This document shows, in pieces, positions 15,014-54,985 of a DNA stretch of 64,000 nucleotides. This DNA comes from a phage. The stretch is from NCBI GenBank assembly GCA_024672315.1, contig GCA_024672315.1_4714.1. One strand, 5' to 3'. The notes under the pieces are model-generated. The model ran no database searches. It was not told the origin of the DNA and saw nothing but the letters and a program-made list of their open reading frames with translations. The translations under genes and the position numbers were made by a program. The stretch's first letter is position 1. Every line of letters starts with the position of its first letter.

Positions 15014-15038
15014 TCACGTAAGTAATATAGCCGTGAAA
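15014..15038 (-). promoter_or_regulatory. conserved 25-nt promoter-like motif, copy 1 (TATATTAC core on the minus strand)
   Basis: Plus strand TCACGTAAGTAATATAGCCGTGAAA; near-identical copies at 39347 and 45204; lies about 50 nt upstream of minus-strand start codon 14973. Confidence 0.5.
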
Positions 15039-30844: not shown

Positions 30845-32431
30845 TTAGAAGTTGCCTTTGGTAGTTACCGCATCCACCAGGTTAAACAAATCAACGCTCA
30901 GCTTATACACCTCCTGCTGACTACGGTTGAGCAGCGGGCTGTATGCAGATGGGTTGATGTTCGGCATGGTGTACGGAATCGGTGCAGAACCGTCAACGCT
31001 GATCTTGAACTGGCTATCCAGGAACAGGTTAATCGCGCCGCTCACCATAACCGCGTTCGGGTTGTTGCCCAACATGGAGGGTAGGATATTGGTAATCATG
31101 TCAGAACGCATTTGTTCAGCAGCACGGTTACAATCGTATCCTTTAATGAACGGTACAGCGTCGGTAACCGCAACAGCCCACTGACCAGGCATGATACCGA
31201 GTTCTGGGTGACCGTGGTTGTCAGCAATGAAACGGAACGACTCCAACATGCGATAGGTCATCGCAGCAGGCATCATTGCAGCAAGCGATGAACAATACAG
31301 CGTTGGATAATCGATCACGTCCCAGCTCTGGCTATCGGTCGGCATCCAACCAAACTCGGTGGTTGCTGACGTACCGCGACGAGCTTCCACATACGGGAAT
31401 AACGTTAAGACATCACGGATATGTTCACCGAACATCCGTTTCATGTCTGCCCAACTCAGGCTACCGCTGAAAGCGAATCCTTCATCACGCATAATCGCAC
31501 CGAATACCGGATGCGCAACCAACGGTTCTTCACGAACAGCTTGAGCGGCTTCCACGTAAATATCCTCGTTCTCCGCGCTACCTGGATGAGACCCGCTTTC
31601 GTACGTCTGACGAATAGCCCCAACATTATCGAAGGCTTTTCTTAGATAGATGGTTGGGATGTTCGTATCAGCACTAGCGGGTTTGATTTTCTCTGTTGCG
31701 AAACACATTGCTGCTTCCACACCACGGAAAACCGGTTCCGGCTGTGGTGGATAGGATGTACGATGAACCACGTCAGCGTAGGCGGGATCGAACTGCTGCA
31801 TCACGTTCTGCATCGCTGGGTCCATGAACTGGTTATCAAAACCGCCATTGCCTACCCAACGTGCTGTTGATGCATAAGTCAGCGTATCCTGAACACGAGT
31901 ACTGAACTGAACATCGCGATTAACAGGGTCGTATGCACCAGTCAGCAGGTTCGTTGCATCCATCGGGGTTGCACGAACGATTTGCTTACCGAACATATCC
32001 GTCGTGGTTGTTTCGGTTACCTGGATTACGTTCGTGAAGAAGAACACCAGTTCATTCGGCAGATCGATAGCACGCGTTGTAAACGCATCAAGGCTTACAG
32101 AATGGTCAGTGTATCCAGAAATGTAATGAACACGCTTGGTTCCTGGTGCAAGGGCCAAGGATTCTTCTACAGCCATCATGAAATGGAAACGGCGTGTGCC
32201 CCAACCATTCGCAATCTCCGAAACCCCCTCAGGTTCTGCAGACTGTTGCAACAAACCGGTTGCAAGCTTATTGATTGCTGATGGTGTTGTTGCCGTACCG
32301 AATCGCGTCGTGTTAATGAAGTCTTCGATGCTACGCATGCTATCTGCGTGGAATCGTAGTGGACGACGTTGTACATTGTTGTACGGTGCGGTTTCAACCA
32401 TCAGTATTTCACGAACATTCATCGGGATCAT
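30845..32431 (-). CDS. hypothetical protein
   Basis: 528-aa ORF. Confidence 0.45.
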   Translation of the reverse strand: MIPMNVREILMVETAPYNNVQRRPLRFHADSMRSIEDFINTTRFGTATTPSAINKLATGLLQQSAEPEGVSEIANGWGTRRFHFMMAVEESLALAPGTKRVHYISGYTDHSVSLDAFTTRAIDLPNELVFFFTNVIQVTETTTTDMFGKQIVRATPMDATNLLTGAYDPVNRDVQFSTRVQDTLTYASTARWVGNGGFDNQFMDPAMQNVMQQFDPAYADVVHRTSYPPQPEPVFRGVEAAMCFATEKIKPASADTNIPTIYLRKAFDNVGAIRQTYESGSHPGSAENEDIYVEAAQAVREEPLVAHPVFGAIMRDEGFAFSGSLSWADMKRMFGEHIRDVLTLFPYVEARRGTSATTEFGWMPTDSQSWDVIDYPTLYCSSLAAMMPAAMTYRMLESFRFIADNHGHPELGIMPGQWAVAVTDAVPFIKGYDCNRAAEQMRSDMITNILPSMLGNNPNAVMVSGAINLFLDSQFKISVDGSAPIPYTMPNINPSAYSPLLNRSQQEVYKLSVDLFNLVDAVTTKGNF

Positions 32432-34019: not shown

Positions 34020-34223
34020 AACAACCTCTTTTCGCGGTTCCCTGTTAAAACGTCTTCTGTGACGTCTACCACAAAGGTAATATAAGCGTGAATAATTTTG
34101 GATTCCGGCTGAGTTATCGCTCAGCATGCAAGGCATCCCGCCGAAGCGAGACACCTTGCACTAACGGAAAATATTCGCGTTACCTTCTGAATCGAAGACT
34201 CAGAATGCGATGCTAAAGCATGA

Positions 34224-35012
34224 TTAGAACGCTAAGCCATCAAAGGCTACGGACGGATCATCGTCGTCATTTGCGCTTGGCGCATCCCAACGGGTATCAG
34301 GGGCCGCTGAAGCCGAACTTGATGCGTTAGAGTTACCGTTGTACTGGCCGTTACCAGCATTACGGTTACCGCCGCCGTTGTTGTTACGGTTATAGCTATT
34401 GTTGCCACCATTACTTACGCTACGGCTTTCACCGTCGAAGTTGGTTGCGAGGATGCTTGGCAACACCGCGCGATGAATACGTACAAATTCCAACGCACAA
34501 AGCGGAGAAACAACCCCGATCTGTAAAGGTTGCCCAGACTCATCAACCAGAGCGTGGAAGCGCGGTGGCTTGAATACGAATTGGATGTTCGGTTTTTGGT
34601 ACGCTGTTACAGCGATATATACCGAACCATCATCGTTCTTACCAACCCATGTTGTACTTTCGGTAATCTGTTTCTTCTTACCTGGGTTATTGCGATCGTC
34701 GATAACCTTTTCGTTCTTCATCGCAAAGCGTTGGCCTGGTTTACCCTTAGCAACCTGCTCGAGGATCGCAAGCAGGTTATAGAACGCGTATGAGCTCATG
34801 CGTGCCCAAATGCTTTCAGCGCGACCCTGCTGGTCTTTACGACCGGTGTAAACCGTGATACGCGGTTGATTCTTAGCAACGCTAATTTTCAATGAGGGGA
34901 TTGAATTACCGCCCTCAACCTTTTCGTCCGCCCACAGTTTCCAGTTGTTGTCGTCATACGCTGTAGGAATAATGTTTCCTTGTGGTTTACTGCCCGAATT
35001 CCAATTGCTCAT
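34224..35012 (-). CDS. putative single-stranded DNA-binding protein (SSB-like)
   Basis: 262 aa; Gly/Asn-rich disordered region followed by acidic tip DDDDPSVAFDGLAF, the architecture typical of SSB C-terminal tails; the core fold was not verified. Confidence 0.4.
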   Translation of the reverse strand: MSNWNSGSKPQGNIIPTAYDDNNWKLWADEKVEGGNSIPSLKISVAKNQPRITVYTGRKDQQGRAESIWARMSSYAFYNLLAILEQVAKGKPGQRFAMKNEKVIDDRNNPGKKKQITESTTWVGKNDDGSVYIAVTAYQKPNIQFVFKPPRFHALVDESGQPLQIGVVSPLCALEFVRIHRAVLPSILATNFDGESRSVSNGGNNSYNRNNNGGGNRNAGNGQYNGNSNASSSASAAPDTRWDAPSANDDDDPSVAFDGLAF

Positions 35013-39346: not shown

Positions 39347-39371
39347 ATCACCTAAGTAATATAGCCGTGAA
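39347..39371 (-). promoter_or_regulatory. conserved 25-nt promoter-like motif, copy 2
   Basis: Plus strand TCACCTAAGTAATATAGCCGTGAAA; about 70 nt upstream of minus-strand start 39283. Confidence 0.5.
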
Positions 39372-40915: not shown

Positions 40916-43151
40916 TTAGCAATGGTTGTTAGTTGCTTCTATTTCGTCAAGATACGGTTCTACGTCATCGCCCTCCACGAATTCGTTGAACCAACAGTCA
41001 ATGGTAGAAATAACCGGTGACTGGTGTTCACATTTCTTAGATACCTTAAAAGGTACGTTATTATCCATCATACCGAGTTCGGGTCGAAAACGCCCGAAAT
41101 GTTTCGCAGTCCAAATGTCTGGGACGATATGGTTGTTCATAGCGTCTCCGTCGCTGTTTATCGACTATATCTTCATCCTCATTGCGAGGAGTCTCCCGTT
41201 TGGGTCTGTGTTTAACAGAGCCTACTCTACTCGACGTCGCGTCTTTCGATAGTCTGTGAGCACACATCTTAACAAACATTCGTGGATTCCTAAACAGGTG
41301 AATGTTCTTGTTGAGATGCTTCGCTGCGGATTATTCCCGTCCTACCTCTTTTACCGTACCCAGTTCATTACGCTGGCCCTCATCTATGTCACCACGATGA
41401 GTTGGTGTGTAGTCCGATTACAGAAACTTCCCGTCAATTAGAGAGTTTTAACTACGTTCCTGTTACCAGAAACCAGATCCCGACGGTATCAATAAATCAA
41501 CGTAAGTTATTGATTTAATTGAAAAAACTGAAATCTGCATTATCTAAATCTTCAGTATGGTTCGCTACGCCATACCCGCACATACGTGCAACTTACGTCT
41601 TTCACGTAAGAAGAGACTATATCTTTCACCCTCAGCATTATCTGGTCGGGGCTCCCATTTCGGCGGTCATCTGACCGGTGGTTTCCCACGCCGCTTGGCC
41701 CTAACGCCCGTAAGCGATAGTCGTTGAGCGCATCTCCGTTCTGGAGACTTCGCTGCGGATTCCCCAATCCTTGCCGCTTTTACCATACCCGAATGATTAG
41801 TTCAGCCCCACGCGCTGTTCCCAGGCGTGGTTGGTGGACAAGGCTCTAAGTAGGTTCCCGCATTAGAGAGTTCCTCGTAACAACATTTCTGCGTTACTGG
41901 GCCTAACGACCCTTTCAAGATCATCACGCTTAACCCGATGGTGTTATCCTGCGGATCGCGTTTAACCTTGGTGATTTCAAGACATTGGTTACTGCTTCGG
42001 TCAAGTGATGGGTTTCGAACAAAGCCACACACAATCCCATCGAACGGTGTATCAGCAATAAGCTCATCATGCAGCTCGCTCATCATCGGATGATAATTAC
42101 GGACATGTTCCGCAACGAACGCACGTGCTGCTCTTGGTGAATAACCACGATGGAATAACTTGGATTGGATATGTTCTTTATTGGTTAAAGTAAATGGTGC
42201 GTATGGGAAATGCAGATGATAATAACGATGGTTCGCTGTTATCGAACTGATTACGGTACGCGTGGTAAATGGATGTAATGTACCTAATATGTTTTTACGT
42301 GTGATACCTTTCTTCTTACCGATGAACTCATCGAAAATCGCCGCATGGTATTGCAGCAGCTTCAATTGCACTTTCGCCATCCAGTTTTCTTTCTTTCTGG
42401 CGCTCAAAGGTGTTGTTGGATGATAGATACTGTTCAACGTACCGATAGCATCGATCGCACCTTCCATTTTGCTATCCGCATAACGACCGGTTGGCGTATT
42501 CTCGATAACGAACATCATGGCCGCAGGAAAGCTGATATACTGACTGAAGAACTTATCACGATGAATACGGATGAATTCTCGTAGCGTGTCAACTTTCTCC
42601 GTGTTCTTCGGTCCACGTAACGTCGGTCCTTTATACAAGATCTCCATGATGCGATCGAAGTTCTGTATAAAACTATTTACGCCACGTCGTATCCCGAATA
42701 CATCGAATTGCTGCTCCAGATAGTTCTTGAGTTCGATGGGTCGTTTTACATTTGGACGGTAACTGGCATCAATGAGCCACGTCATCGTTTCAAAGCTTTT
42801 GATATTCAACTCGCTTGCCAGCACGAGATGGACCAACGGGTTAATGAACGCATCGATTCCTTCAGGAACGCGCGCCCACACCGTCGAACGAATCTCCTGT
42901 TCTGCTGGGTAGGTTACAACCGTTTTACAGTTTGGACACACCGTGCCGAGCAGCTCACCACGATTGTAGAAACCACAACCACATTGTGGCGTGATATCCA
43001 ACGTATCGCTGGAGTAAACACGGGTGATAAAACTGTTTAATTTCTTCTTCTCTTCGACGACTTTTGTATCGTAATCGTTCAACAAAATCGGCGTAAAAGG
43101 AAGTTCTGCGAGCTGTCTATCGAAACTCACGATATCGAGCATGATGGCCAT
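40916..43151 (-). CDS. multisubunit RNA polymerase beta-prime-like subunit, N-terminal fragment, interrupted by two putative group I introns
   Basis: Exon 1 (43151..41879) has zinc-ribbon CGCGFY...CPNC and RNPSLDR resembling NRAPTLHR; proposed micro-exon 41543..41531; exon 3 (41153..40916) encodes DGDAMNNHIVP...LGMMDNN resembling DFDGDQMAVHVP...LMMSTNN; spliced length 1524 nt, in frame. Confidence 0.65.
41154..41530 (-). ncRNA. putative group I intron B (377 nt, no ORF)
   Basis: Minus-strand Q-like AATCCGCAGC (41332..41323), R-like GCTCACAGACTATCG (41261..41247), S-like GAAGATATAGTC (41174..41163); AAATC (41516..41512) complementary to exon end GATTT; ends in G; 5' region homologous to intron A. 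Confidence 0.6.
41544..41878 (-). ncRNA. putative group I intron A (335 nt, no ORF)
   Basis: Minus-strand Q-like AATCCGCAGC (41761..41752), R-like GCTCAACGACTATCG (41729..41715), S-like AAAGATATAGTC (41626..41615), GAAA-loop hairpin (41610..41592); starts after an exon U, ends in G. Confidence 0.6.
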
Positions 43152-43193
43152 GGGGTATCTCCTACAAATGAAAAAGAACGTTAGGACGTATAA

Positions 43194-43217
43194 GGGAGGG
43201 AGGTTGCCCTCCCTCCC
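43194..43217 (-). terminator. GC hairpin between the 631-aa gene and the beta-prime N gene
   Basis: GGGAGGGAGG / CCTCCCTCCC perfect 10-bp stem with short loop. Confidence 0.5.
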
Positions 43218-43243
43218 GTCAGATTACATCGAACGTTCTTCCA

Positions 43244-45139
43244 TTAGAACAGGTTGAATGCCCCACCCATGTTGTTACCGCCAACATTCGGACGATCGCT
43301 ACGTGCGTAGATGTTGCCGGAGATGTTACCCAGACCACGAGCACGTGCTGCCATGTTACCACGAACAGCGGTACCTGCCAGGTGCTGGATGTTCTCAGGA
43401 CGGATGGTGAAGCCAGCATCAGCCGCAGCTTCGATCAGCGCCTGCAGTGCTAACGGATCGAAGTCGTAACGCATTGCCCAGCCGGTTTGTTCCCAGCTAC
43501 CAGACAGAACACGATCAATGATTTCGTGACGAGCGACAACACGCTGAGACATCGTCATATCGGTACGGTCGAAGCTGTCTTCCCAAGCTTCTACGGTATC
43601 CGGGTTAGTGATGTTCATCATGTACAGATCGTCCATATCACGAATATCGTGACGGTGACCATCCTGGTGGTTGTAGTAACCCAGCGGGATACGGTTACCG
43701 GTAGCGTAGACCAGCGGTTGGCCGTATTGATATTTCTTGCTGAAGCAACCCAGGGTAGTATCATCGAAGGCACGGTAGAGTGCTTTGTAACCTTCGGAGA
43801 TTTCTTGAACTTTACCGTCAACGTTGCCCGTAAAGATCTTCTCAGCCGCCGGGATCATACGCAGCAGCCAGCTATACTCGCCTTCTTCCGGTACGTCGAT
43901 AGAAATCAGCAGAGACGGATACAGAACCTGTTGCAGGAACTTGTAAATCTGCTCGTTGGTTTGCGTAGACAGATCCAGCGGTGCAGTCACTTCAGGATCC
44001 AGCACCATCGCCAGAGCACCTGGGTTATGCGGACCAATACCACGAGCCGCGTTGCTGATTAAAGACTGTGCCCATGCCATGCCGCTGTTCAGCGTAGCGA
44101 TGGTACCAATCAGACCCAGCACGAAGCTGTTCGGTGTGAACGCATCCAGCTCCAGCGGGTAAACGCTGGTCATCACGTAACGCGGCTGGTACTGTACAGT
44201 CGGCGGTACCGGATAGCCGTTAACCAGAACAGGGCCTTGGTTGAAGGTCGGGTTCTGCGGGCTGTAGGTCAGGTCAATGTAACCGGTGGTGGCGACCAGA
44301 CGCTGTTGACTATCGTAATCGCTCATCGCTTGACGGATGCGGTTAGAGATAGTTACAGTGATGTCAGAACGCACAGGGTTACCAACAATATCGCTGTCCT
44401 GCATACCGCTGGTGTTGTACTGAACGCTGCTGATTGGCTGATCGCTTGCCATCATGCCCAGGTTGAACTGCGGCAGACCCAGTTTATCACCGAGACGGAT
44501 TTCGATCGCGGTTTGGATTGCGTTATCTGCAGCAGACAGCAGGGTGGTTGCCAGATGCGCAGATTCAGCGGTGATTTCATTGGTCACCACAGCCAGACCA
44601 GCGATACGAACAGTACCGTTAGACTTACCGCCAATAGCTGAATACATTGCCGCCATGACTTCGTTGATGAACGTACCGTTCAGGTTATCAACCCAGGTAC
44701 GCGGTACCAGAATGTTACCATGCGGACCTTGTTCTTCACGACGCGGCAGCGGAGCCAGACCAGCAACCAGCGGCAGGACGTAACCGAAGAAGTGGTTATG
44801 ATCACCAACTTTTGCACCGCTCATAACAACCAGGGTCGGATACGGTACGCTGTACTGGTTCGGGTCAACCGCAACAAAGATGAAGTCGTCTTTGAACTGG
44901 GTATCTTCCAGATATTTCTCCATCAGACGACGGAGATTCAGTACCTGCTCGGAGCCGGTATTACGGCTGATACGACGGCTCAGTGTACGGTTGATCGTAC
45001 GCATCGTATGAGTTACTTTAGGACGGTCGGCAAAATCTGCAGCGGTTTCCAGCGCCTCATCAGCACGTTGTGCGGTGCGGGTTTCAGCTGCACGAATTTC
45101 TACATTATCGTTACCGTTATTACGTACGTCTAAGCCCAT
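43244..45139 (-). CDS. hypothetical protein (candidate nuclear-shell/chimallin-like protein, speculative)
   Basis: 631 aa; AAGAGGAA Shine-Dalgarno; directly downstream of promoter-like motif copy 3; chimallin assignment rests only on size, likely early expression and genomic context. Confidence 0.5.
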   Translation of the reverse strand: MGLDVRNNGNDNVEIRAAETRTAQRADEALETAADFADRPKVTHTMRTINRTLSRRISRNTGSEQVLNLRRLMEKYLEDTQFKDDFIFVAVDPNQYSVPYPTLVVMSGAKVGDHNHFFGYVLPLVAGLAPLPRREEQGPHGNILVPRTWVDNLNGTFINEVMAAMYSAIGGKSNGTVRIAGLAVVTNEITAESAHLATTLLSAADNAIQTAIEIRLGDKLGLPQFNLGMMASDQPISSVQYNTSGMQDSDIVGNPVRSDITVTISNRIRQAMSDYDSQQRLVATTGYIDLTYSPQNPTFNQGPVLVNGYPVPPTVQYQPRYVMTSVYPLELDAFTPNSFVLGLIGTIATLNSGMAWAQSLISNAARGIGPHNPGALAMVLDPEVTAPLDLSTQTNEQIYKFLQQVLYPSLLISIDVPEEGEYSWLLRMIPAAEKIFTGNVDGKVQEISEGYKALYRAFDDTTLGCFSKKYQYGQPLVYATGNRIPLGYYNHQDGHRHDIRDMDDLYMMNITNPDTVEAWEDSFDRTDMTMSQRVVARHEIIDRVLSGSWEQTGWAMRYDFDPLALQALIEAAADAGFTIRPENIQHLAGTAVRGNMAARARGLGNISGNIYARSDRPNVGGNNMGGAFNLF

Positions 45140-45203
45140 TTGGGATTCCTCTTTTCTTAAACTTTATTAAATGACGTCATTGAATCAGCTTCTACTCGCT
45201 CAT

Positions 45204-45228
45204 TCACCTAGGTAATATAACCCTGAAA
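45204..45228 (-). promoter_or_regulatory. conserved 25-nt promoter-like motif, copy 3
   Basis: Plus strand TCACCTAGGTAATATAACCCTGAAA; about 75 nt upstream of minus-strand start 45139. Confidence 0.5.
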
Positions 45229-45393
45229 TTTTTTTCAATATTGGTGTAACCGCATTGAACGATATAAACCCCTAGGCGAACGCTGCCGAGAAGCAACATT
45301 CTTTCTACATATAATCAGGATATGTCTGTAAACTTTTACTTCTCTTATTGAGAGTAATGTCATATCCGTTTACCATCTTCTTACGGAGTTCGT

Positions 45394-46488
45394 ATGTTTC
45401 GTGTTTTAAATAACCTCCCGCGAACATCATCGGGTGTGCAACCCGTCCCTCAGAAAGACTATCTAATACGCGAAGTTCAAAGAAACCTACAGACAATCCA
45501 GAACCACTATCAAGGTTTTACCTTCGCGGTTCAGAGCGATCACATCCTTGCGTTGCTGCTCGCACAGCTCCCTATGAGATACGACATCTCAGTACAAACT
45601 TACTACGACATGATTCTCGATCTTACCCCAGAATTGGGTAATCGTGTCAAGTTGACAACATCAAGATACGCGGGTAAGTTATTCGACGGTGCTTTCTATC
45701 CGGGATTGCACGAAGCTATTATTGCAACCGGTGAAAGTCGTCTTATTTCACGTGACGTTCTTGATAACTGGCGTAATTGGTCACCAGTTAGAATCGTGAC
45801 GCATCCATACGCAAATCTTCGTTACATTCCTCTTCACCGAAAGCAGATTGAAGAAGGACGAGGTTTTGCGGTTATTATGGTTGATGTGCCTTTATTAGCG
45901 CTACAGTATCGAATGTGGTCTTTGGTCATGGGTCATAACGACGACGGTAAATGGGTGGTTAAAGAACCGGTTACAAGCTTCCTTGCGAGTTTTCCGTTGG
46001 TTAACGCATTATACTCACACAACGATGTTGTTATACGCAATCGTTGTTTATGGATATCTCCGGCTAAGAATCCACTCAAATCACCAATTTACGTTAACGA
46101 CCTTGATAACGTATTCAGCCAAGTCGTTCTGTCCGTACAGCATCATTTATTACGAAGAAGACGAAGCTACACCGACATGCTTAAACAGATACCGAGTTTA
46201 TACGGAGATCAGTACCAAGCAACCCGAATGGGCTACACCGTCGATCTTCGACAAACACGATGGGCAAGGGATCTGGGTTGTCTGTCATTATGGCAACAAC
46301 TCGTCACATTGCAAAACGTATCTGAAAGCGTCGGGTTCAGCAGTCAAATCGATAATGACCTGTATCGTGCTGCCGACCGAAGTCTAAAAGAAGGTAACTG
46401 GGAGTCCTCTCCGTTACCTGGCGATTTAAGACGTGAAGTTATTGCACAGGTTGCCGACCTCTTAAAAATTCTTCCTGCTGGTGCATAA
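45394..46488 (+). CDS. hypothetical protein
   Basis: 364-aa plus-strand ORF with ACGGAG Shine-Dalgarno. Confidence 0.5.
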   Translation: MFRVLNNLPRTSSGVQPVPQKDYLIREVQRNLQTIQNHYQGFTFAVQSDHILALLLAQLPMRYDISVQTYYDMILDLTPELGNRVKLTTSRYAGKLFDGAFYPGLHEAIIATGESRLISRDVLDNWRNWSPVRIVTHPYANLRYIPLHRKQIEEGRGFAVIMVDVPLLALQYRMWSLVMGHNDDGKWVVKEPVTSFLASFPLVNALYSHNDVVIRNRCLWISPAKNPLKSPIYVNDLDNVFSQVVLSVQHHLLRRRRSYTDMLKQIPSLYGDQYQATRMGYTVDLRQTRWARDLGCLSLWQQLVTLQNVSESVGFSSQIDNDLYRAADRSLKEGNWESSPLPGDLRREVIAQVADLLKILPAGA

Positions 46489-46554
46489 TCACCTCCCTCT
46501 TCCCTTGCATCCTCCCAACCCGTAAGGGAAGGGAGGATGGGGTGGTGGATTATG

Positions 46555-48708
46555 TTACTCTGTGGTTTCTCGCTTCGGTAAATAACTTGCTGCAATGTCT
46601 TGGGCTAACAATGTATTGTTTTTATTCGAGATGAAAATACCGTAACTTTCCATTAACGCGTAATACGAACGCACGAGCGTAGAGATCAATCGACGAATAT
46701 CCATACCTTGAATAAAGATATCGGGAAGCCCGGAGGCTTCGATCACCGGTAATGGTATCGTTAAGTTGCTTATCGTTTTCTTATCGTTACGTACAATCCA
46801 ATCACGGAAACGTTGTTGTAACCCTTTATCCTCCCAGGAATCAATCCAATCGTTAAGAAGCGTTTTGTTCTTCGTCGCCAACGGCACACGAACCCCAACA
46901 TAGGGTGGTTCCTGGCAATGGCCGTACGATTGAGCAAACACCTCTTCCCACATATCGTAAGACTGTTTCGTTACTGCAACATGCGGTTTCACTTTAACAC
47001 GTGTTAAGAAATCAGGATCACCACGTTTCATGGACTCAACGATTTCGTTTTCTAACGAGATAATATCGTCAAGAACCAATCGAATGCTGATCTTCTCATT
47101 ACGTAACAGCTTATCCATGATACCGCACATCATGCGTTCAACACGTTTGACGATCATTTTTGGTGCTGACGCATCGCGCATAACCGGACCTTTCAATTCC
47201 AGCTTCGGTGGATTGATAGGAACCCCTTCACGCATGGTCATGTAACCGTAATAGTTTTTACCCATCGAGGTTAACGACAGAATCAAGAACATATATTCGT
47301 TCTTCATTTCCATCACGTACATATGCTCTTTCGCCACACCGATATTACCAGAACACATCGCCATCAGATGGACTGTAATCTGCGTAACCAGATAGATAAG
47401 CGTGTTTGCTAAGCGCGTCGAAACTGGATTGATCTCCATATTTCCAAATCGCCACTGAACCCACTCCTGGCAGGTAAACACTGTCGAGTCGGTATCAGAC
47501 AACACACCCACTTCACGGATTGCTGATGGGAAAGCATAAACGCCAGCCGGTTGATTCTCGGTACGCCAGAACGCCATAATCAAATCAGCGTAGCTTTGGA
47601 TACGCTGTAGCATTAATTTTGTCGTTGCTGCGGTAAGACGATAACCAAGTTCATTTCCTTTTTCTAGCGCTACGTAAATCGCCTCCCCATTCAAGAACTC
47701 CGTGCATTGTGCTGTAATCCAAGCAACCGTGTTGTTATCCATGGAAGCAATAATGGCTTTAGCCTCTTCCATCGTTTCAACAGGTTCGGATGCCAGTTCA
47801 CATAACGAGTCAAGAAAATCTCGAACAAATTCAGGATTAAGCTCACGTAACGAGTACAGGTTATTGCTGTACATGTAGCAGGCGCGTTCTAATGGCGTTA
47901 AACCGGTAATTAGCTCCCGGATGGTCAGCTCTTTCTCTGGGTCGAAAGTATATCGATGCAAGCATTTCGATACGTTAGCCCAAACCTCTTCCGGCGTAGG
48001 GTAATGCAGTTTGTATTTTACCATTACCTGCTCAATGGCTTTACGATCGCTATTACGAACAATGCTCACGATGTTTTCAATTGCGATATCACAATCGTAA
48101 TAATGGAAATTGCCCGCAAGGAAGCGTTCGTTGTTCGCATTGGCTGAACCTGAAGCACAGCGACATGTTGTCGTTAAGCTTGGATGCGCAATCGGATTAT
48201 AAAAAGGGTTGAACTTGGACGCCTGGGTTCCTGACAAACTGTTGTTATCTAACTTGGTGTTGGTTTGTCGCTTATCGTGTAACTCAGCTTCATCTTTACG
48301 TCCGTGTGCTTGTGCTATCGACATTTGTTTCTTTTGTTTCTTACGCAACTTACCGTTTTCAACCGCAAAGTCGCTTAGCACACTGGAGCGTGTCTCACGT
48401 GGATAACAGTTAGCCCACACCGGCGTGATAATTAAATTATTTTCTTTAATATCGTTGAAGTATTGGCTGAACTTGATGACTTCTTTTTCACGATTTCCTT
48501 CGGTACGCTGTGTTAATACCAGGCAGTCGGGATCAACCATCCCGTATTTTCCACCAGGACGAACCGTTTCAAGAACAAACTGCAACGCTTCCTGCTGAGA
48601 TATCCCACGCATGCGCATTAAGAATAGGGTATAATCCTGTACCGCTTCTTTGGTCATATCCAACGTACGACCATATCCGTTTTCATCGTAAAAGAACGGA
48701 TTTTCCAT
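46555..48708 (-). CDS. hypothetical large protein
   Basis: 717 aa; GGAGGA Shine-Dalgarno; contains SDTDS, but motif order does not fit a canonical family-B polymerase. Confidence 0.5.
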   Translation of the reverse strand: MENPFFYDENGYGRTLDMTKEAVQDYTLFLMRMRGISQQEALQFVLETVRPGGKYGMVDPDCLVLTQRTEGNREKEVIKFSQYFNDIKENNLIITPVWANCYPRETRSSVLSDFAVENGKLRKKQKKQMSIAQAHGRKDEAELHDKRQTNTKLDNNSLSGTQASKFNPFYNPIAHPSLTTTCRCASGSANANNERFLAGNFHYYDCDIAIENIVSIVRNSDRKAIEQVMVKYKLHYPTPEEVWANVSKCLHRYTFDPEKELTIRELITGLTPLERACYMYSNNLYSLRELNPEFVRDFLDSLCELASEPVETMEEAKAIIASMDNNTVAWITAQCTEFLNGEAIYVALEKGNELGYRLTAATTKLMLQRIQSYADLIMAFWRTENQPAGVYAFPSAIREVGVLSDTDSTVFTCQEWVQWRFGNMEINPVSTRLANTLIYLVTQITVHLMAMCSGNIGVAKEHMYVMEMKNEYMFLILSLTSMGKNYYGYMTMREGVPINPPKLELKGPVMRDASAPKMIVKRVERMMCGIMDKLLRNEKISIRLVLDDIISLENEIVESMKRGDPDFLTRVKVKPHVAVTKQSYDMWEEVFAQSYGHCQEPPYVGVRVPLATKNKTLLNDWIDSWEDKGLQQRFRDWIVRNDKKTISNLTIPLPVIEASGLPDIFIQGMDIRRLISTLVRSYYALMESYGIFISNKNNTLLAQDIAASYLPKRETTE

Positions 48709-48783
48709 AAATCCTCCAAAAGTTATTTAGTCTGTCTACATCATCTCGTATATCTGTTAAAAAAGAAGGACGGCATAAAAAAG

Positions 48784-48812
48784 AACCGATCCAGCCGAAG
48801 CCAGATCGGTTA
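48784..48812 (-). terminator. hairpin followed on the minus strand by TTTATGCCG
   Basis: AACCGATC...GATCGGTT stem; minus-strand TTTATGCCG at 48771..48779, then GGAGGA and the start of the 717-aa gene. Confidence 0.45.
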
Positions 48813-49007
48813 AAAAGGATAATAACTGACAGAAAGATATCGATGATGTTCGTGAAACAAGATCTTCTCTCGTGCACAATGATGCTAGATCAGAGGGAGG
48901 TTGTAACACGAGAGGCGATTCGCCAAAGAAGGAATAAAAAACACGAATCTATCTTATTTCACTGATGGCACTAACCACTCAAAATATATAGTACTGTATG
49001 TAAAAGT

Positions 49008-49421
49008 TTACTGATTAATCAAGTCGTTAGCAACAATCTTAGTGTAACCTGCCTGATTAAGAATCTGATTAATTTTCGTCACGTCGGTCGCATCCTCAAT
49101 AACGATGCTGGGTTTATAGATCAGCGTCTTGGTAACGACGATTGTACTCTCCTTAATCCAAGGAATCCCTAGAATCACATACTCGCCATCGGCTGTAATG
49201 ACCTCGACGTAATTGTATCTCGTCGGATCGTTCGGTACACTAGACGGGAGCCGGGAATAAATCTGTTGGTGAATGGCGTCTACATCACGGCCGTTGCGCA
49301 CAGCCGTACGATAATTGTACACGGCGCTAATTTCTACTCCGTTGAAGTTAACCCCAAGTTCTGGGGCGTATACATCAAAACTCACAACAGAGCCAATCTT
49401 TTCTAAATCAGAAGCTGGCAT
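49008..49421 (-). CDS. hypothetical protein
   Basis: 137-aa ORF. Confidence 0.4.
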   Translation of the reverse strand: MPASDLEKIGSVVSFDVYAPELGVNFNGVEISAVYNYRTAVRNGRDVDAIHQQIYSRLPSSVPNDPTRYNYVEVITADGEYVILGIPWIKESTIVVTKTLIYKPSIVIEDATDVTKINQILNQAGYTKIVANDLINQ

Positions 49422-49432
49422 AATAGCATCCT

Positions 49433-49954
49433 TTATTTAAAAATGTATTCGTATCCGAAGGTCGTCGCCGACCAGACCCGGATAGATGATAGTGTTCCGC
49501 CACGATAAAACGTTTTTGTGAATTCCATATCCTGGGCAACACGATAATAAACACGTCCGATAATACGCACGATAAGGTTTCGTGATAACGATCTCTCCTC
49601 GCAGTACTCATCGATAAAGTCATCGTCGATATCCGATAAGACAACATCTGCAATTTCTTGCAGTAGATTCCTCATCAGCATCTGCCTTCCTTCGGTACCC
49701 CACCCAGACAAACAGTAATCGTCTTCTGCCTGACTATAGATGTCGTTAACCGCCTGTTCGAGCAGTTGCTCAAGATAGTAGTCATCGCGTTTTATAACGT
49801 GGCGACGGCGCTCAGTGGCGTATTTTTCCATCCTGTGTTTCTCTTGTTCGGCGTATGTATTAACGACGCCACAGTCTTTTCTGGATCGTCCCACAATGCA
49901 CGACGAAAACTGGATACTACCATAACGGTAGGATAGATTTGTACAACCTCCCAT
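49433..49954 (-). CDS. hypothetical protein
   Basis: 173-aa ORF; start uncertain because it overlaps the next ORF. Confidence 0.35.
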   Translation of the reverse strand: MGGCTNLSYRYGSIQFSSCIVGRSRKDCGVVNTYAEQEKHRMEKYATERRRHVIKRDDYYLEQLLEQAVNDIYSQAEDDYCLSGWGTEGRQMLMRNLLQEIADVVLSDIDDDFIDEYCEERSLSRNLIVRIIGRVYYRVAQDMEFTKTFYRGGTLSSIRVWSATTFGYEYIFK

Positions 49955-50280
49955 CCGTAACGATGTGCGTTAGTCGTACGTCCGACATTGAACAGACATA
50001 GCTGATTTAAGAAACAGAGCTGCATCTTCGTAAACAACACCATGTCTTCACGTTTAACGTATCCGAGGATATACGCATTCTCGAACGCCTCGCGTGACAA
50101 GACGGGACGATTAAGATACCGCAACGCCAGTACCAACAACGTTGTTATGCGCAACGGATCTTCTGGGTCATTCATGGTGCTCAGCTCTGCTTGTAACCAG
50201 TCAGGGATAGTAACCGTCAGACGATAGGTATCTGTTCCACGATCAACCACATTCAATGTTGAAAAAGGCAACATATCCAT
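49792..50280 (-). CDS. hypothetical protein
   Basis: 162-aa ORF. Confidence 0.35.
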   Translation of the reverse strand: MDMLPFSTLNVVDRGTDTYRLTVTIPDWLQAELSTMNDPEDPLRITTLLVLALRYLNRPVLSREAFENAYILGYVKREDMVLFTKMQLCFLNQLCLFNVGRTTNAHRYGWEVVQIYPTVMVVSSFRRALWDDPEKTVASLIHTPNKRNTGWKNTPLSAVATL

Positions 50281-50818
50281 GAATTCCTTCTAGCTCGAGG
50301 TTGTTCTCGCCGGTCTTCGGTAATAACCCACTGGCCGTTAACATCTGTGTCATCGAGTAGTCAAAGCACGGAAATATCAGGTTAACGGTTTCCTGGATCG
50401 CGTCAACATAACTATAAATGGCTTCATAATACTCACCATCATGATCTACGCTAACCAGTTCCTGACACAGTTCTTCGCTTATCATTTCATATACCGGTGG
50501 ATACCACGATTGAAATGGTCGCTGCATACGTAACGACCAATACTCGTACGTCGTATACTGAAGCACGTCATATGCCGATACGTTAATGCGGTCGAAGAAA
50601 GTATACTTGTCCATATGCTGATACAACATCGCCAGCACGGTTTCCAAGCACACCGATATCCGCACGCCGTCATCTTTCCCGTTAAGAAAATTAGGTTTCT
50701 GCCGATAACGCACAAATGCCGACGGCTTCGATTGCATTATTCCACCACCAACCATAACGTCATACTCGTATCTAACGTAAAATTGAAATGCCACCAATCT
50801 TCTACACGTGGAATCCAC
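50243..50818 (-). CDS. hypothetical protein
   Basis: 191-aa ORF. Confidence 0.35.
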   Translation of the reverse strand: MDSTCRRLVAFQFYVRYEYDVMVGGGIMQSKPSAFVRYRQKPNFLNGKDDGVRISVCLETVLAMLYQHMDKYTFFDRINVSAYDVLQYTTYEYWSLRMQRPFQSWYPPVYEMISEELCQELVSVDHDGEYYEAIYSYVDAIQETVNLIFPCFDYSMTQMLTASGLLPKTGENNLELEGIHGYVAFFNIECG

Positions 50819-51420
50819 GTACGAAGGATTTGGTTAACTTCGCTTCGCATCACCGATAAACGACAACGAAAATCGAACTTCTCATCATGGCCGTAGTCTT
50901 CATGCATGAAAACTTCATCCAGAACGAACTCAAGTTGCATGTCGACATCACGGCCAGAGATATTCCGTTTGTACAAATACAACTCAATCGTGTCGTAAAG
51001 CAACGTATGAATATCATAATTTCCGTTCGGTGAGAAATAAGGTAACCGCTCATCGAGCATCGAAAACAGATATTCGCTGTAGTTTAATAACGGGATGATG
51101 TACCGACGCCCTGTCTGTGGTGTGCGAATATGTATCGAAACCTGACTTGGGCGCGGAATAACCGACGGCTTAGAATCGTCTCTCTGAAATTGCTCTAAAG
51201 ATCGCAACAAAGGTGGCCGCATTGTAACTCTCCAACGCCCAATTGTAAGGCCCTTCCAACATGTGTTCCCATACGTGAATAAACTCACTACCGAAGACAG
51301 GCTCCAGCGCCATGGTGAGATTCGTAAGTTCTGACGCGGCCGCATGGTAAGCATCAACATGTCTTTCCATTGACGGATCGTCTTCATTGAAAATACGTTC
51401 TGTATCGCCAGCCCGCTCAA
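50737..51420 (-). CDS. hypothetical protein
   Basis: 227-aa ORF, ATGA overlap with upstream gene. Confidence 0.4.
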   Translation of the reverse strand: MSGLAIQNVFSMKTIRQWKDMLMLTMRPRQNLRISPWRWSLSSVVSLFTYGNTCWKGLTIGRWRVTMRPPLLRSLEQFQRDDSKPSVIPRPSQVSIHIRTPQTGRRYIIPLLNYSEYLFSMLDERLPYFSPNGNYDIHTLLYDTIELYLYKRNISGRDVDMQLEFVLDEVFMHEDYGHDEKFDFRCRLSVMRSEVNQILRTWIPRVEDWWHFNFTLDTSMTLWLVVE

Positions 51421-52394
51421 TAAGTTCGGTAATGAGATCTGTCCATGTCTCGTGACACGTCATCATTTCCTGCTCTCGACTTAGTATGCCGATGTCTGCG
51501 TGGACGCTGGACTCGAACCGGTCTAAAAGGACCCGAAGAACGTGCACCTTGTCGATGTATTTCACCGTTATCCAAGAAAGCGGTTGCCATCGACTCAACA
51601 TCCATCCGGTACTCGGGAACCCCAAACTCATATAGTACGGGTTGCACCGGACCGAAGACGGAGCGACGTTGTTTAAATCGTTCCTTAAGGGCAAGGCCTT
51701 GTTTAATATAAACGGGTTCATTGGCGAGCTGTTCCGCTTTTCGTTTTGCGTGAGCCAATCGAAGTTCTTCCAATTGCCCAAGCCATTCAAATTGTTCATC
51801 TGTTAGCTCCTGGGGACGTTCAACAATCGCGCCAGACGGGCAGATATTGATCGTAATGTTAATTGACGGCATCGCCATCACTCGAGGATTACTATTACGT
51901 ACGCGGACAACGTGTTCGGTTGCTGATTTACGATCGACGCAATACTCTGTTTCTTGGAACTCAAATGCTTTTAACGGCGTTGGTTTTGTTTGACGTTTAG
52001 GAACGCGGCCAAGATCAACAATATAGGCATAATCGCACACACGTTCTATTCCGTAAATACGGTTATCCGACCAGTTCTTACCAAACAGCTTATTGTGATG
52101 ATAAGACAGATATTCGGTTACCATACCCTGGACAACATCGAAGTCTTCTCGAAATTCAGGTTGGTACCAAATCGGGCCGAGAATATCTGCGAACGATTCA
52201 TGACGATATCGAGGATCATGTCGAGTCCAGGTCATTCTCTGGTTAAGATCGAAATCCACCAACAACTCGGTTAATTGCAATTTTTCCTTCGGAGAAAGCT
52301 GGCGTTGATGATGCAAACTCAGGCAATCGATAAGCGGTAATGAAACCCACGATGCTAATGTGTACAAATCGATCCTGGCTAATCTCTTGGTCAT
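51417..52394 (-). CDS. hypothetical protein
   Basis: 325-aa ORF. Confidence 0.45.
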   Translation of the reverse strand: MTKRLARIDLYTLASWVSLPLIDCLSLHHQRQLSPKEKLQLTELLVDFDLNQRMTWTRHDPRYRHESFADILGPIWYQPEFREDFDVVQGMVTEYLSYHHNKLFGKNWSDNRIYGIERVCDYAYIVDLGRVPKRQTKPTPLKAFEFQETEYCVDRKSATEHVVRVRNSNPRVMAMPSINITINICPSGAIVERPQELTDEQFEWLGQLEELRLAHAKRKAEQLANEPVYIKQGLALKERFKQRRSVFGPVQPVLYEFGVPEYRMDVESMATAFLDNGEIHRQGARSSGPFRPVRVQRPRRHRHTKSRAGNDDVSRDMDRSHYRTY

Positions 52395-52485
52395 ACTCTT
52401 TTCCTAAGTCCCCATTGTTTATACACACGATATCTGGGAATAGTTAAAATATACGGCGTAAAACGAAGCAGGAGAGTTTCTGACG

Positions 52486-52806
52486 TCATTTTCTCCCTCT
52501 TCGAATACCACCGATACCTCTTTCGTCTAAGACGTCCCAGGCACGCTTTATTTCATCCTCCGTTGCTCTGGTATCTGGAGGGACAACCATAACACAGTCG
52601 TGGAATGGCCAATGTGTAGGTCTGGGATTAGCGAACAAATCATCCCATTCAAATGTCCATTCTTTCTTTGAGCGATTGTAATAGAGCGTAAGGTACGTGT
52701 TGGTATACGCCGGATAACCACGCATAACCTCAATATCCTTGCGATCTTGCCGTTCCTGATTCCAATCGTTAAACCGCTTTCTTATTTTCTCCCACCACTT
52801 TCCCAT
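52486..52806 (-). CDS. hypothetical protein
   Basis: 106-aa ORF; AGGAGA Shine-Dalgarno; TTTATGCCG about 20 nt upstream. Confidence 0.4.
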   Translation of the reverse strand: MGKWWEKIRKRFNDWNQERQDRKDIEVMRGYPAYTNTYLTLYYNRSKKEWTFEWDDLFANPRPTHWPFHDCVMVVPPDTRATEDEIKRAWDVLDERGIGGIRRGRK

Positions 52807-52828
52807 GCTTTCTCCTACGCGGCATAAA

Positions 52829-52850
52829 AGCCTGCCCCGAAGGACAGGCT
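52829..52850 (-). terminator. hairpin followed on the minus strand by TTTATGCCG
   Basis: AGCCTG...CAGGCT stem; minus-strand TTTATGCCG at 52820..52828. Confidence 0.45.
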
Positions 52851-52859
52851 CGATAGAAC

Positions 52860-53060
52860 TTAATAACCATCCAATTTCAATGAAGGATGGTTGACGATAT
52901 GTGCGTGTTTTGCTGGGTCATATAGCTGATATGGAAAATAGCCATGCCATTGACGGCCTTGGCATTTCGTACACAGGAACTGACCAGCACTTTGTCGATT
53001 CTCGTAAGCGAGTTCGGTACTATCAACATGACCGCAACGTTCGCAGATAAACAGCGACAT
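52860..53060 (-). CDS. small zinc-ribbon protein
   Basis: 66 aa; CERCGH...CTKCQG cysteine pairs. Confidence 0.35.
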   Translation of the reverse strand: MSLFICERCGHVDSTELAYENRQSAGQFLCTKCQGRQWHGYFPYQLYDPAKHAHIVNHPSLKLDGY

Positions 53061-53097
53061 AGCGCATCCCCATTCACTTGAACTTTTTGGTTCGGTG

Positions 53098-54078
53098 TTA
53101 GAAAAGCAAGAAACCGCTATTCTTCGCTTCCGCTACAGTTTCGTCACCAACTTTCGGTGCCTGTTGACGTGCGTTACGATGTTCGATGTAACGTTTCGCT
53201 TCGTCCGCGATCTGTTTGATAATACCCCCTAAACGATCGGTACTTAAAACAAACGACGTCGCTTCACGAATCGGGCTGCTTTCAGGCACAAAACCATCAC
53301 AGCTGTAAATAGCGCTAACGCCCATGACTTTGGTCGCGTCTTTCGGATAAAGCGTACAGAAAGCAATCGGGCTATCGTTCTCTTTCGTCCAATCGTATCC
53401 CATGAACGTATTCAGTTCGGTGATCGTTGGTTCCAAACCGGTAACACGCGGATGGTTTAAGAAGTTTTCCAGGTCGGCGCTGTCAAGACGACGGTTCTCG
53501 CCAGAAAACAGAACACAAAGCTGGCTAATAACAACCTGCACGTCCAGGTTGACATCCTGCTCCGATTTCCCATTTTCGCCATTCATGTGATAGCTAACAA
53601 TCACTGGACGTTTCAACCCTTCTGCGGCTGCCATCAGTCCTTTGAAGGTGCGATCGGCGTTGATCGTCTGACGCTCATCATCGAACGAGGCAACGATACA
53701 ACACACCACACGTTCACCGCGTTCCAGCAGATTAGCAACCAACGCAGGACCGGCAACAGAACCTGAACCACCGCTCAAACTAAAGACCACGATATTAAAT
53801 TTACCTGGCGTATGCTTATTGAGAATACCTGGGATTTGTGAACAGATCAGCTCAGCGTTCTCATCACGCTTCTTACCGGAACCGTCTAGCTCACGACCAG
53901 CTGCATCTTTAAAGATGTAAATATGATCGTCGCCCAGTGTGCTATCGCGTAGGTTAGCGCGGCTGGTATCAACATACGTCATGCTGTGTAATCCTTTCGC
54001 GACTTCGCCTTCAAATGCTGAGCCGATTTCGCCACCACAACCACCGACAGCCCAAATATGTACTTGGTTCTCTTGCAT
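53098..54078 (-). CDS. phuZ: tubulin/FtsZ-like GTPase (PhuZ-like)
   Basis: 326 aa; N-terminal glycine loop IWAVGGCGGEIG and tubulin signature FSLSGGSGSVAGP (GGGTGSG-type); AGGAG Shine-Dalgarno; size matches phage PhuZ. Confidence 0.7.
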   Translation of the reverse strand: MQENQVHIWAVGGCGGEIGSAFEGEVAKGLHSMTYVDTSRANLRDSTLGDDHIYIFKDAAGRELDGSGKKRDENAELICSQIPGILNKHTPGKFNIVVFSLSGGSGSVAGPALVANLLERGERVVCCIVASFDDERQTINADRTFKGLMAAAEGLKRPVIVSYHMNGENGKSEQDVNLDVQVVISQLCVLFSGENRRLDSADLENFLNHPRVTGLEPTITELNTFMGYDWTKENDSPIAFCTLYPKDATKVMGVSAIYSCDGFVPESSPIREATSFVLSTDRLGGIIKQIADEAKRYIEHRNARQQAPKVGDETVAEAKNSGFLLF

Positions 54079-54142
54079 GTGAACTCCTAACTTAATATGT
54101 ATTTAACGCACAATGAATCTTACTTTGCTAAAGGGGTGACCC

Positions 54143-54985
54143 ATGGGTGCTATTGACTACAGTGTAGATCGTATCTGTCGTACAATACCGGCAGATATCC
54201 TACAGTATTGCTATATCGATCGTTACGACTGGCGTAATCGCTATCCTCGTTCCGTAGAAGACATCATTACCGATTGGGTAATCCGTAAACGGGTTATCGG
54301 CGACATCGATATCTACGGGGGACTACAAACCGTTATTCCCCTTGATGATGCCGGTGTCACTATCGAAGAAGTCACCATTAACTGTTATGTTTTCCACATC
54401 CCGTTGGAAGCCACGCAGGGACGTTATATCACGTCTGCATTATCCATTATTTCAGGGAGCGTGAACAACTACGGAATAAACTATAACGGTCAATGGGGCG
54501 CTTTCAACCAAACCCAATTTCAACGTCAGCTTTGCGGATGGAACCCCGCAAGCAACACATTACAGCAAGGGATGAACGCGTTCGGTCCCATGAACGTTCT
54601 TAGTACAGCCAACGTTGATATCATCGCCCCTAACACCATCATGGTGAACAACGTCACGCCTGTACAATTTCCCCTGAGTCTACGTTGTTTCCTTGCCCAC
54701 GATCCGGAACTTACTAACCTCAGCATGGAGGTTTGGAACGACTTCTACAAACTCTGTTTATACGCCACACAAAGTGACATCTACAACAGAACCGTTATCC
54801 GTCTTGATAGAGGTGTTACAGCACAAGGACAAGAAGTCGGTGCATTCAAGGAATACATCGATCGCTTTGCTGATGCTGAAAACACATATCAGGAATTCCT
54901 GAACGAAACGTGGGCTGGCGTTGCTGCCTGGAACGATCCACAAACTAAACGTCGCGCCATTCGTTTGCAAACCGGTTACTTCTGA
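54143..54985 (+). CDS. hypothetical protein
   Basis: 280-aa plus-strand ORF. Confidence 0.45.
   Translation: MGAIDYSVDRICRTIPADILQYCYIDRYDWRNRYPRSVEDIITDWVIRKRVIGDIDIYGGLQTVIPLDDAGVTIEEVTINCYVFHIPLEATQGRYITSALSIISGSVNNYGINYNGQWGAFNQTQFQRQLCGWNPASNTLQQGMNAFGPMNVLSTANVDIIAPNTIMVNNVTPVQFPLSLRCFLAHDPELTNLSMEVWNDFYKLCLYATQSDIYNRTVIRLDRGVTAQGQEVGAFKEYIDRFADAENTYQEFLNETWAGVAAWNDPQTKRRAIRLQTGYF

Follow-up and report, generated by a model that had tools for sequence, protein, structure and literature searches.

Near-identical homologues of the phage-nucleus proteins ChmA and PhuZ in a 64-kb Goslarvirus sequence

The 64,000-nucleotide stretch of phage DNA analyzed here (the window; contig GCA_024672315.1_4714.1 of assembly GCA_024672315.1) originates from a Goslarvirus. 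These jumbo phages of the Chimalliviridae form a nucleus and have E. coli and related enterobacteria as hosts. Almost certainly, ORF 43244..45139 encodes the shell protein ChmA, which would be transcribed early by the virion RNA polymerase, and ORF 53098..54078 the tubulin PhuZ, which would form the vortex that rotates the phage nucleus. DNA of Escherichia phage vB_EcoM_Goslar (Goslar) is collinear with the window at 95–98% identity, a 1-nt intergenic indel shifting the coordinate offset past 48.7 kb. The surroundings are those of a chimallivirus, with an RNA polymerase beta' gene, a divergent family B DNA polymerase gene and homologues of PicA and ChmC. The beta' gene adjoins chmA directly downstream, the same order as in phiKZ, PhiPA3 and RAY. 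At 8–14 kb from chmA, on the side away from phuZ, lie picA (Goslar gp174; 30845..32431, minus strand; 96.8% identity by blastn), encoding a nuclear-import factor of the same machinery as the shell, and chmC (Goslar gp176; 34224..35012, minus strand; 98.4% by blastn), encoding a nucleus-associated RNA-binding protein. The initial annotation, made from the letters of the sequence, had correctly recovered chmA and phuZ as hallmark genes of the phage nucleus, with exact coordinates but leaving unstated that both are on the minus strand. Both are near-identical to the characterized ChmA and PhuZ of Goslar, for which structures, cell biology and knock-down data have been published, and in this sense they are already known and represent nothing new. 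The identity of the two proteins follows directly from the matches given below; based on 97.5–99.7% identity to the Goslar proteins, we infer that promoter function, expression timing, lattice assembly and vortex behavior of this variant resemble those of Goslar.

The 631-aa product of chmA (43244..45139, minus strand), whose designation as nuclear-shell protein had initially been offered as speculative, is chimallin, the major protein of the phage-nucleus shell. It shares 97.5% of its residues with Goslar gp189 (GenBank MK327938; gp246 in RefSeq NC_048170), with 16 substitutions and no indels, and the cryo-EM structure of Goslar chimallin (PDB 7SQT) matches residues 1–631 with E = 0. The Pfam family Chimallin (PF25677) covers residues 19–596 at 98.3 bits versus a cutoff of 27, and PHROG 4795 ('nuclear shell protein') matches at 1.8e-54. 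The N- and C-terminal regions, corresponding by collinearity to the segments NTS, CTS1 and CTS2, can be aligned over their entire length with those of Goslar ChmA; near the tails only G38D, Q39R and V621G are changed, the Goslar segment boundaries being approximate as the published residue numbers are those of 201phi2-1. With a dN/dS of 0.11 relative to Goslar, chmA is under purifying selection. That the protein might instead be a structural component of the virion, belonging to capsid or tail, is so improbable as to be negligible, and this candidate was rejected on the Pfam, PHROG and PDB matches: the solved chimallin structures are matched over the full length, and Pfam and PHROG return chimallin or nuclear-shell families only, with no capsid or tail family among the matches. 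Virion-related matches in the region are confined to the neighbors gp190 (a weak PHROG match), gp192 and gp202, and gp189 is absent from the text of the preprint on the Goslar virion structure.

Turning to the expression signals of chmA, an early promoter-like motif of the virion RNA polymerase type, TTCAGGGTTATATTACCTAGGTG, is located at 45205..45227 (minus strand), 65 nt upstream of the chmA ATG, and is preceded by the A-tract GAAAAAAATTT. The extended 23-mer TTCASGSYTATATTACYTWSGTG occurs four times in the window with at most one mismatch versus zero times in 100 shuffles, and all four copies are on the coding strand, 41–86 nt upstream of start codons, one of them (34070–34092) preceding the gp175–picA gene pair; the bare 8-mer TATATTAC by itself is not enriched in the window (4 copies vs 2.1 expected). 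The same element is found 5' of chmA in phiKZ, RAY and KpGz_1, and in the one-mismatch form TATATCAC in PhiPA3, so that the motif upstream of chmA is conserved in four other genera. It also matches promoters predicted for phiKZ and 201phi2-1 in the literature, and a review describes chmA as transcribed by the virion RNA polymerase and ChmA as among the most abundant early proteins. The motif may thus be considered a putative promoter, and the conserved element 5' of chmA provides a handle for finding early genes of Goslarviruses. A scan for sigma-70 promoters gave fewer matches than shuffled sequence and none that was convincing 5' of chmA or phuZ, as expected because such phages use their own RNA polymerases. 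The Shine-Dalgarno (SD) sequence of chmA, AAGAGGAA, is found 6 nt before the ATG (45146..45153, minus strand). Directly 3' of the stop codon, a terminator-like hairpin (43171..43242, minus strand), with GGGAGGGAGGG-CAAC-CCUCCCUCCC nested in a longer stem and followed by UUUUU, folds at -41.1 kcal/mol (z = -6.05), a stability reached by none of 200 shuffles. The initial annotation had rated the expression signals of chmA above all others in the window, which does not hold in that form: the motif is real and an SD is present, but the SD:anti-SD duplex (-6.0 kcal/mol) ranks only 34th among 77 crude ORF calls, with that of phuZ in 20th place (-6.8 kcal/mol). What makes chmA stand out is that it has both one of the four motif copies and, right after its stop codon, a terminator hairpin of very high stability. 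With its own motif, SD and terminator, chmA is predicted to be a self-contained unit.

Within the stretch 40916–43151, the adjoining beta' gene harbors two polymorphic group I introns that flank a 13-nt micro-exon. Their Rfam scores of 47.8 and 30.8 bits fall short of the cutoff of 50, and they surface only under E-value thresholds; at gathering thresholds, Rfam gives no match in the window. Since the exon sequence flanking the introns is polymorphic as well, the junctions were assigned by visual inspection and verified in translation, the predicted beta' mRNA reading ...AAAGGGU/AUAAUGCAGAUUU/CGACGGAGAC... (slashes marking the junctions).

The second gene, phuZ (53098..54078, minus strand), encodes a phage tubulin of 326 aa that differs from Goslar gp201 (GenBank; gp234 in RefSeq) by the single conservative substitution E229D (99.7% identity). 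PDB matches include 9PM9 (4e-220), phiKZ PhuZ 3ZBP (8e-29) and 201phi2-1 PhuZ 3R4V (6e-15), and PHROG 4733 ('tubulin PhuZ') covers the full length at 2.9e-68. The Pfam model Tubulin (PF00091) scores 29.9 bits (E = 8e-7), just under its 33-bit gathering cutoff, which is usual among divergent PhuZ proteins. The tubulin/FtsZ glycine loop and signature on which the original proposal rested are both borne out by alignment: AVGGCGGEIG occupies residues 10–19, with the T1 loop at 12–19 (G12-G13-C-G15-G16-E-I-G19), and SLSGGSGSVAGP residues 100–111, with the T4 signature S102-G-G-S-G-S-V108 aligned to the GGGSGSV loop of 201phi2-1 PhuZ (PhuZ201). The T4 motif GGSGSV departs from the canonical signature GGGTGSG. 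In T7, R-L-D199-S-A-D202 aligns with R-L-D187-V-H-D190 of PhuZ201; the GTPase residues are intact, and the C-terminal tail (residues ~295–326) is identical to that of Goslar PhuZ/9PM9. At a dN/dS of 0.02 relative to Goslar, phuZ, too, is under purifying selection. An SD sequence, AGGAG, lies 5 nt before the ATG (54084..54088, minus strand), and the window search found no copy of the early 23-mer motif 5' of phuZ. In a literature search on 9PM9, no paper on this structure turned up.

The tubulin/FtsZ superfamily includes TubZ as well as PhuZ, and the term TubZ-like has been applied to the PhuZ of phiKZ. One may consider the protein to be a partition tubulin of the TubZ type, as found on plasmids and prophages, that segregates the phage genome with the help of a centromere-binding adaptor, the more so as Goslar-like genomes persist in, and are co-sequenced with, bacterial cultures. 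We regard this as extremely improbable: a PDB sequence search up to E = 10 retrieved PhuZ-type chains and the unrelated 109-aa chain 1nnx (YgiW, E = 0.18) but no TubZ, the protein shares 99.7% of its residues with the PhuZ of Goslar, which forms filaments around the nucleus and rotates it, and there is no evident TubR-like gene next to phuZ, its downstream neighbor encoding a 66-aa zinc-ribbon protein. PhuZ of Goslar has been reported to form dynamic filaments that depend on GTP and set the phage nucleus in motion, and comparable dynamics may be anticipated for the present variant, which is one residue away. The role originally attributed to PhuZ, positioning of the phage nucleus, does not hold for Goslar, where PhuZ rotates it; the published dominant-negative catalytic mutant D202A abolishes vortex and nucleus rotation and leaves positioning unchanged.

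The 11 kb from 43244 to 54078 could be taken for one co-regulated phage-nucleus module or operon, as the products of both end genes and of gp193 in between act at the nucleus. This is very unlikely in view of what the span contains. Upstream of chmA, with its own promoter-like motif and terminator, the gp190 homologue (364 aa; 45394..46488) is on the opposite, plus strand; it belongs to PHROG 3938 of unknown function (4e-53) and more weakly matches a PHROG 'virion structural protein' family (7e-11). It is followed by the divergent family B DNA polymerase (Goslar gp191/gp244; 46555..48708, minus strand; Pfam PF20286, 1.6e-204; 99.6% aa identity), which is not part of shell or cytoskeleton, and by a terminator-like hairpin upstream of the polymerase gene (48784–48811). 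The gp192 homologue (49008..49421, minus strand) is a Pfam SH3DP protein (PF20287, 3e-36); in the cryo-EM preprint on the Goslar virion, gp192 is a component of the capsid vertex-binding complex and gp202 likewise a virion protein. The gp193 homologue (132 aa; 49433..49831, minus strand) has no match in Pfam or PHROG but is 100% identical to Goslar gp193, which localizes to the phage nucleus (Birkholz et al. 2022); small proteins without a match to any annotated family also lie between chmA and phuZ. Located 37 nt downstream of phuZ, the gp200 homologue (66 aa; 52860..53060, minus strand) displays a CxxC...CxxC zinc-ribbon pattern with weak Pfam zinc-ribbon matches under the curated cutoffs. 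It is probably co-transcribed with phuZ: the gap between the two has no terminator-like site, and the unit appears to end in the hairpin AGCCUGUCC-UUCG-GGGCAGGCU followed by UUUUAU (52824..52850, minus strand), at a position homologous to that of a terminator in the Goslar annotation. Considering further that phuZ is not preceded by an early motif copy and that picA and chmC lie beyond chmA, the gene arrangement argues for chmA and phuZ as separate transcription units, 8 kb apart, in a span predicted to hold at least three minus-strand units parted by terminators.

The exact ChmA and PhuZ sequences are already public on contigs of ~234–240 kb, in assemblies of E. coli and Salmonella and in gut metagenomes. 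Among the listed copies of both protein clusters (E. coli, Salmonella, Shigella, metagenomes), all except Goslar's own entries are named 'hypothetical protein', and most database copies bear names such as 'hypothetical protein [Escherichia coli]' or '[Salmonella enterica]', which might suggest that chmA and phuZ are bacterial or prophage genes. This is exceedingly unlikely, since the carrying contigs are stand-alone and, at 234–240 kb, similar in size to the Goslar genome, and since a lytic phage is collinear with the window over all of its 64 kb. A search for chmA among 5,426 complete E. coli RefSeq genomes yielded no match and hence no sign of a prophage or plasmid form in these genomes. A published analysis recovered 237 Goslarvirus genomes from bacterial assemblies and takes such contigs as co-sequenced lytic Goslarviruses, with which the 234–240 kb contigs are consistent. 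The practical value of assigning both genes to a Goslarvirus thus lies in annotation, as the 'hypothetical protein' copies could be given the names ChmA and PhuZ.

Going by its homologues in Goslar and phiKZ, chmA would be transcribed from the TATATTAC-type promoter very early in infection by the injected virion RNA polymerase, and the mRNA would be translated in the cytoplasm. ChmA would then self-assemble into a flexible square lattice of tetramers, held together by N- and C-terminal tail segments that dock on neighboring protomers, in keeping with the description of shell architecture and tail function by Laughlin et al. 2022. The resulting shell would enclose the replicating phage DNA and keep out ribosomes and host nucleases. 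PhuZ, as a GTPase of the tubulin/FtsZ superfamily, would polymerize into filaments that form a vortex around the shell and push on the cell membrane, thereby rotating the nucleus, as in Goslar. GFP fusion and cryo-ET demonstrated that Goslar ChmA encloses the phage DNA in a shell during infection (Laughlin et al. 2022; Birkholz et al. 2022), and the present variant is expected to behave likewise.

Comparing the system with its closest relative, ChmA agrees with Goslar ChmA (PDB 7SQT/7SQU/7SQV) in its length of 631 aa and in genomic position (beta' downstream, gp190 and DNA polymerase upstream), and presumably has the same function. It differs by G38D, Q39R, R81Q, A167S, A177V, A326V, T338S, Y436F, K439N, E441D, E443K, R445Q, V461T, L474Q, H488Y and V621G. 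Seven of these 16 substitutions are within residues 436–461, and 5 fall into the patch 436–447. This patch is also variable in other Goslarvirus ChmA proteins (7 of 12 columns vary among 16 sequences), and its density of variable columns was reached in only 5 of 20,000 permutations. Although this is an unlikely proposition, residues 436–447 may form a patch on the protein surface that experiences diversifying pressure, exerted by a host factor or by the phage's own import and docking partners; together with the mix-and-match beta' introns, this could reflect ongoing competition or incipient speciation among co-circulating Goslarviruses.

The chimallins of Pseudomonas phages (PhiPA3 PhuN/gp53, PDB 8FNE; also 7SQQ–7SQS and 8IGG) belong to the same family (PF25677) but share only ~22–25% aa identity with the ChmA studied here; the TATATTAC-type element 5' of chmA and the chmA-then-beta' gene order are common to these phages and the window. 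At the structural level, protomers of Goslar and 201phi2-1 superimpose with an r.m.s.d. of 1.8 A and both form a tail-mediated lattice, while the CTS2 tail of Goslar is shorter than in the Pseudomonas phage chimallins and makes different contacts (Laughlin et al. 2022). As to the tubulin, Goslar PhuZ (PDB 9PM9/9PMK) is identical in the T1 and T4 loops, D199/D202 and the C-terminal tail, E229D being the only difference, whereas the PhuZ proteins of 201phi2-1 (gp59; 3R4V, 3J5V; ~27% identity) and phiKZ (gp39; 3ZBP) share the GTPase core, a GGSGS-type T4 and the RLDxxD motif of T7. In the Pseudomonas phages, a bipolar PhuZ spindle centers the nucleus; the PhuZ of Goslar instead rotates the nucleus by way of a vortex and is dispensable for positioning it.

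Both ORFs singled out in the initial annotation are present at precisely the coordinates given there. The 631-aa ORF (43244–45139, minus strand), for which a role as nuclear-shell protein had been no more than speculation, encodes chimallin (ChmA). Its database matches include the cryo-EM entries of Goslar chimallin, 7SQT/U/V, over residues 1–631 (E = 0), PhiPA3 PhuN and two more chimallin structure sets (1e-11 to 2e-22), the Pfam model Chimallin_Phikzvirus (98 bits, cutoff 27) and the PHROG 'nuclear shell protein' family (2e-54). Relative to ChmA of Escherichia phage vB_EcoM_Goslar, we counted 16 substitutions and no indels (dN/dS 0.11). Five of the 16 fall within residues 436–447 (43799–43834, minus strand), where variable positions cluster: 7 of these 12 columns vary among 16 Goslarvirus sequences, a density matched by only 5 of 20,000 permutations. 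Laughlin et al. (2022) described chimallin tetramers that form a flexible square lattice, joined via one N-terminal and two C-terminal segments, and the same architecture in Goslar chimallin; ChmA knock-down during Goslar infection causes arrest at an early vesicle stage.

The tubulin-like ORF (53098–54078, minus strand; 326 aa) encodes PhuZ, in agreement with its original assignment. Matches were obtained to PDB entry 9PM9 (4e-220), phiKZ PhuZ (3ZBP, 8e-29), 201phi2-1 PhuZ (3R4V and 3J5V, 6e-15) and the PHROG 'tubulin PhuZ' family (3e-68); the general Pfam Tubulin model scored 29.9 bits, just under its cutoff of 33. A single residue, E229D, distinguishes the protein from Goslar PhuZ. The quoted tubulin motifs AVGGCGGEIG and SLSGGSGSVAGP occupy residues 10–19 and 100–111. 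A lack of GTPase residues, which would have spoken against the assignment, was not seen in the alignment: D199 and D202 correspond to the T7-loop aspartates D187 and D190 of PhuZ201 (PhuZ of phage 201phi2-1), and D202 is exactly the residue mutated in Goslar PhuZ by Birkholz et al. (2022), so that the GTPase residues are intact. In that study, the D202A protein kept the filament vortex from forming and much reduced nucleus rotation, but left nucleus positioning unchanged. The proposed function of positioning the phage nucleus thus holds for Pseudomonas phages, but not for this lineage.

The claim that chmA carries the strongest expression signals in the window was not confirmed as stated: the promoter-like motif is real, but the Shine-Dalgarno sequence is not exceptional. 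Although AAGAGGAA is indeed found 6 nt 5' of the ATG, its predicted pairing energy with the 3' end of 16S rRNA places chmA only 34th among 77 ORFs, with phuZ 20th. The 8-mer TATATTAC alone is not enriched in the window, but the 23-nt context common to its four copies, TTCAsGsyTATATTACyTwsGTG, occurs four times at ≤1 mismatch versus zero in shuffled sequences. All four copies lie on the coding strand (here minus), with start codons 41–86 nt downstream: the chmA copy (45205–45227) and those upstream of an HD-domain gene (gp159; 15015–15037), of the gp175-PicA gene pair (34070–34092, one mismatch) and of gp182 (39349–39371). Three of the four, the chmA copy included, have exact matches at the homologous Goslar positions; the gp175-PicA copy was not found in Goslar by exact-match search. 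The motif agrees with predicted promoters tabulated for phiKZ, 201phi2-1, OBP and N1M2. A closely similar element precedes chmA in phiKZ, RAY and KpGz_1, and in PhiPA3 with one mismatch; the A-tract in front of it is shared by phiKZ, PhiPA3 and RAY. According to a review, chmA is transcribed by the virion-packaged RNA polymerase and its product ranks with the most abundant early proteins. On grounds of its conservation, the 23-nt motif is therefore probably the early promoter. A highly stable hairpin (z = -6) with a U-run after it closes chmA, which is thus a monocistronic unit. A motif search of the window returned no copy upstream of phuZ; downstream of phuZ lie a 66-aa zinc-ribbon ORF and, after that, a UUCG-loop terminator.

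The idea that the 11-kb span between the two genes constitutes a dedicated module was rejected, as its interior genes are mixed and terminator-like hairpins divide it into at least three minus-strand units. It contains gp190 on the opposite strand, a divergent family B DNA polymerase, homologues of gp192 (49008–49421, minus) and gp193 (49433–49831, minus; 132 aa), and seven small ORFs without annotated family (gp194–gp200). The Pfam name of the gp192 homologue, 'SH3 fold domain associated with phage DNA polymerases', is at odds with the reported place of gp192 in the capsid vertex-binding complex of the Goslar virion. Goslar gp193 was described in one paper as nucleus-localised and 'of unknown function' and labelled 'RecA homolog' in a later preprint; the latter fits poorly with the 132-aa size and the absence of any Pfam or PHROG match. 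On the other side of chmA, 8–14 kb away, lie homologues of the nuclear-import factor PicA (Goslar gp174; 30845–32431, minus) and of the nucleus-associated RNA-binding protein ChmC (Goslar gp176; 34224–35012, minus), so that the window holds four named phage-nucleus components rather than two. Beyond phuZ, we noted a gp202 homologue (DUF7484; 54143–54985, plus), reported as a baseplate lower-wedge protein, and a gp232 homologue without family match (54976–55512, minus), whose dN/dS of 0.46 (most neighbours, 0.01–0.13) and 93.3% amino-acid identity with its Goslar counterpart mark it as the fastest-evolving gene in the neighbourhood of the focal genes.

Directly downstream of chmA, the RNA polymerase β' gene (40916–43151, minus) contains a pair of group I introns, of 365 nt (41908–41544) and 377 nt (41530–41154), whose Rfam scores of 47.8 and 30.8 bits are both under the cutoff of 50, with a 13-nt micro-exon (41543–41531) between them. 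Their excision yields an uninterrupted 497-aa ORF with YNADF|DGD, which places intron 1 inside the universal Mg-binding catalytic motif (NADF|DGD). Contigs with identical ChmA (loci L005–L008) carry one or the other intron, or both. In Goslar, the exons are annotated as separate genes (gp188 and gp185), and only the first intron is present (96% identity), followed by a 1.4-kb segment (167846–169282) with the HNH/NUMOD1 homing-endonuclease ORF gp186 that is missing at the window's 41140/41158 junction. Elsewhere, the DNA helicase gene (Goslar gp164; 20183–22813, minus) contains an in-frame 1,050-nt insertion (21326–22376), lacking in Goslar, that adjoins the GSGK P-loop. With its LAGLIDADG motifs (Pfam LAGLIDADG_3, 3e-6) and its end in ...THN|T, it looks like an intein; it has no Rfam match.

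The exact sequences of both proteins were already in public collections, ChmA on 234–240 kb contigs from E. coli assembly GCA_024613925.1 and gut metagenomes; the database copies listed are all 'hypothetical protein' apart from Goslar's own entries. Complete RefSeq E. coli genomes contain no copy. Bacterial assemblies yielded 237 Goslarvirus genomes in a study from 2025. The entire window is collinear with Goslar 127,729–191,761 (95–97% identity) save for three structural differences that leave both focal genes unaffected, and the 11.2-kb span with both genes is 97.9% identical. The Goslar counterparts are annotated in RefSeq (gp246, 'nuclear shell protein'; gp234, 'tubulin PhuZ') and appear in the literature under their GenBank numbers gp189 and gp201. 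The finding is thus a correct rediscovery of an already known, well-characterised system.
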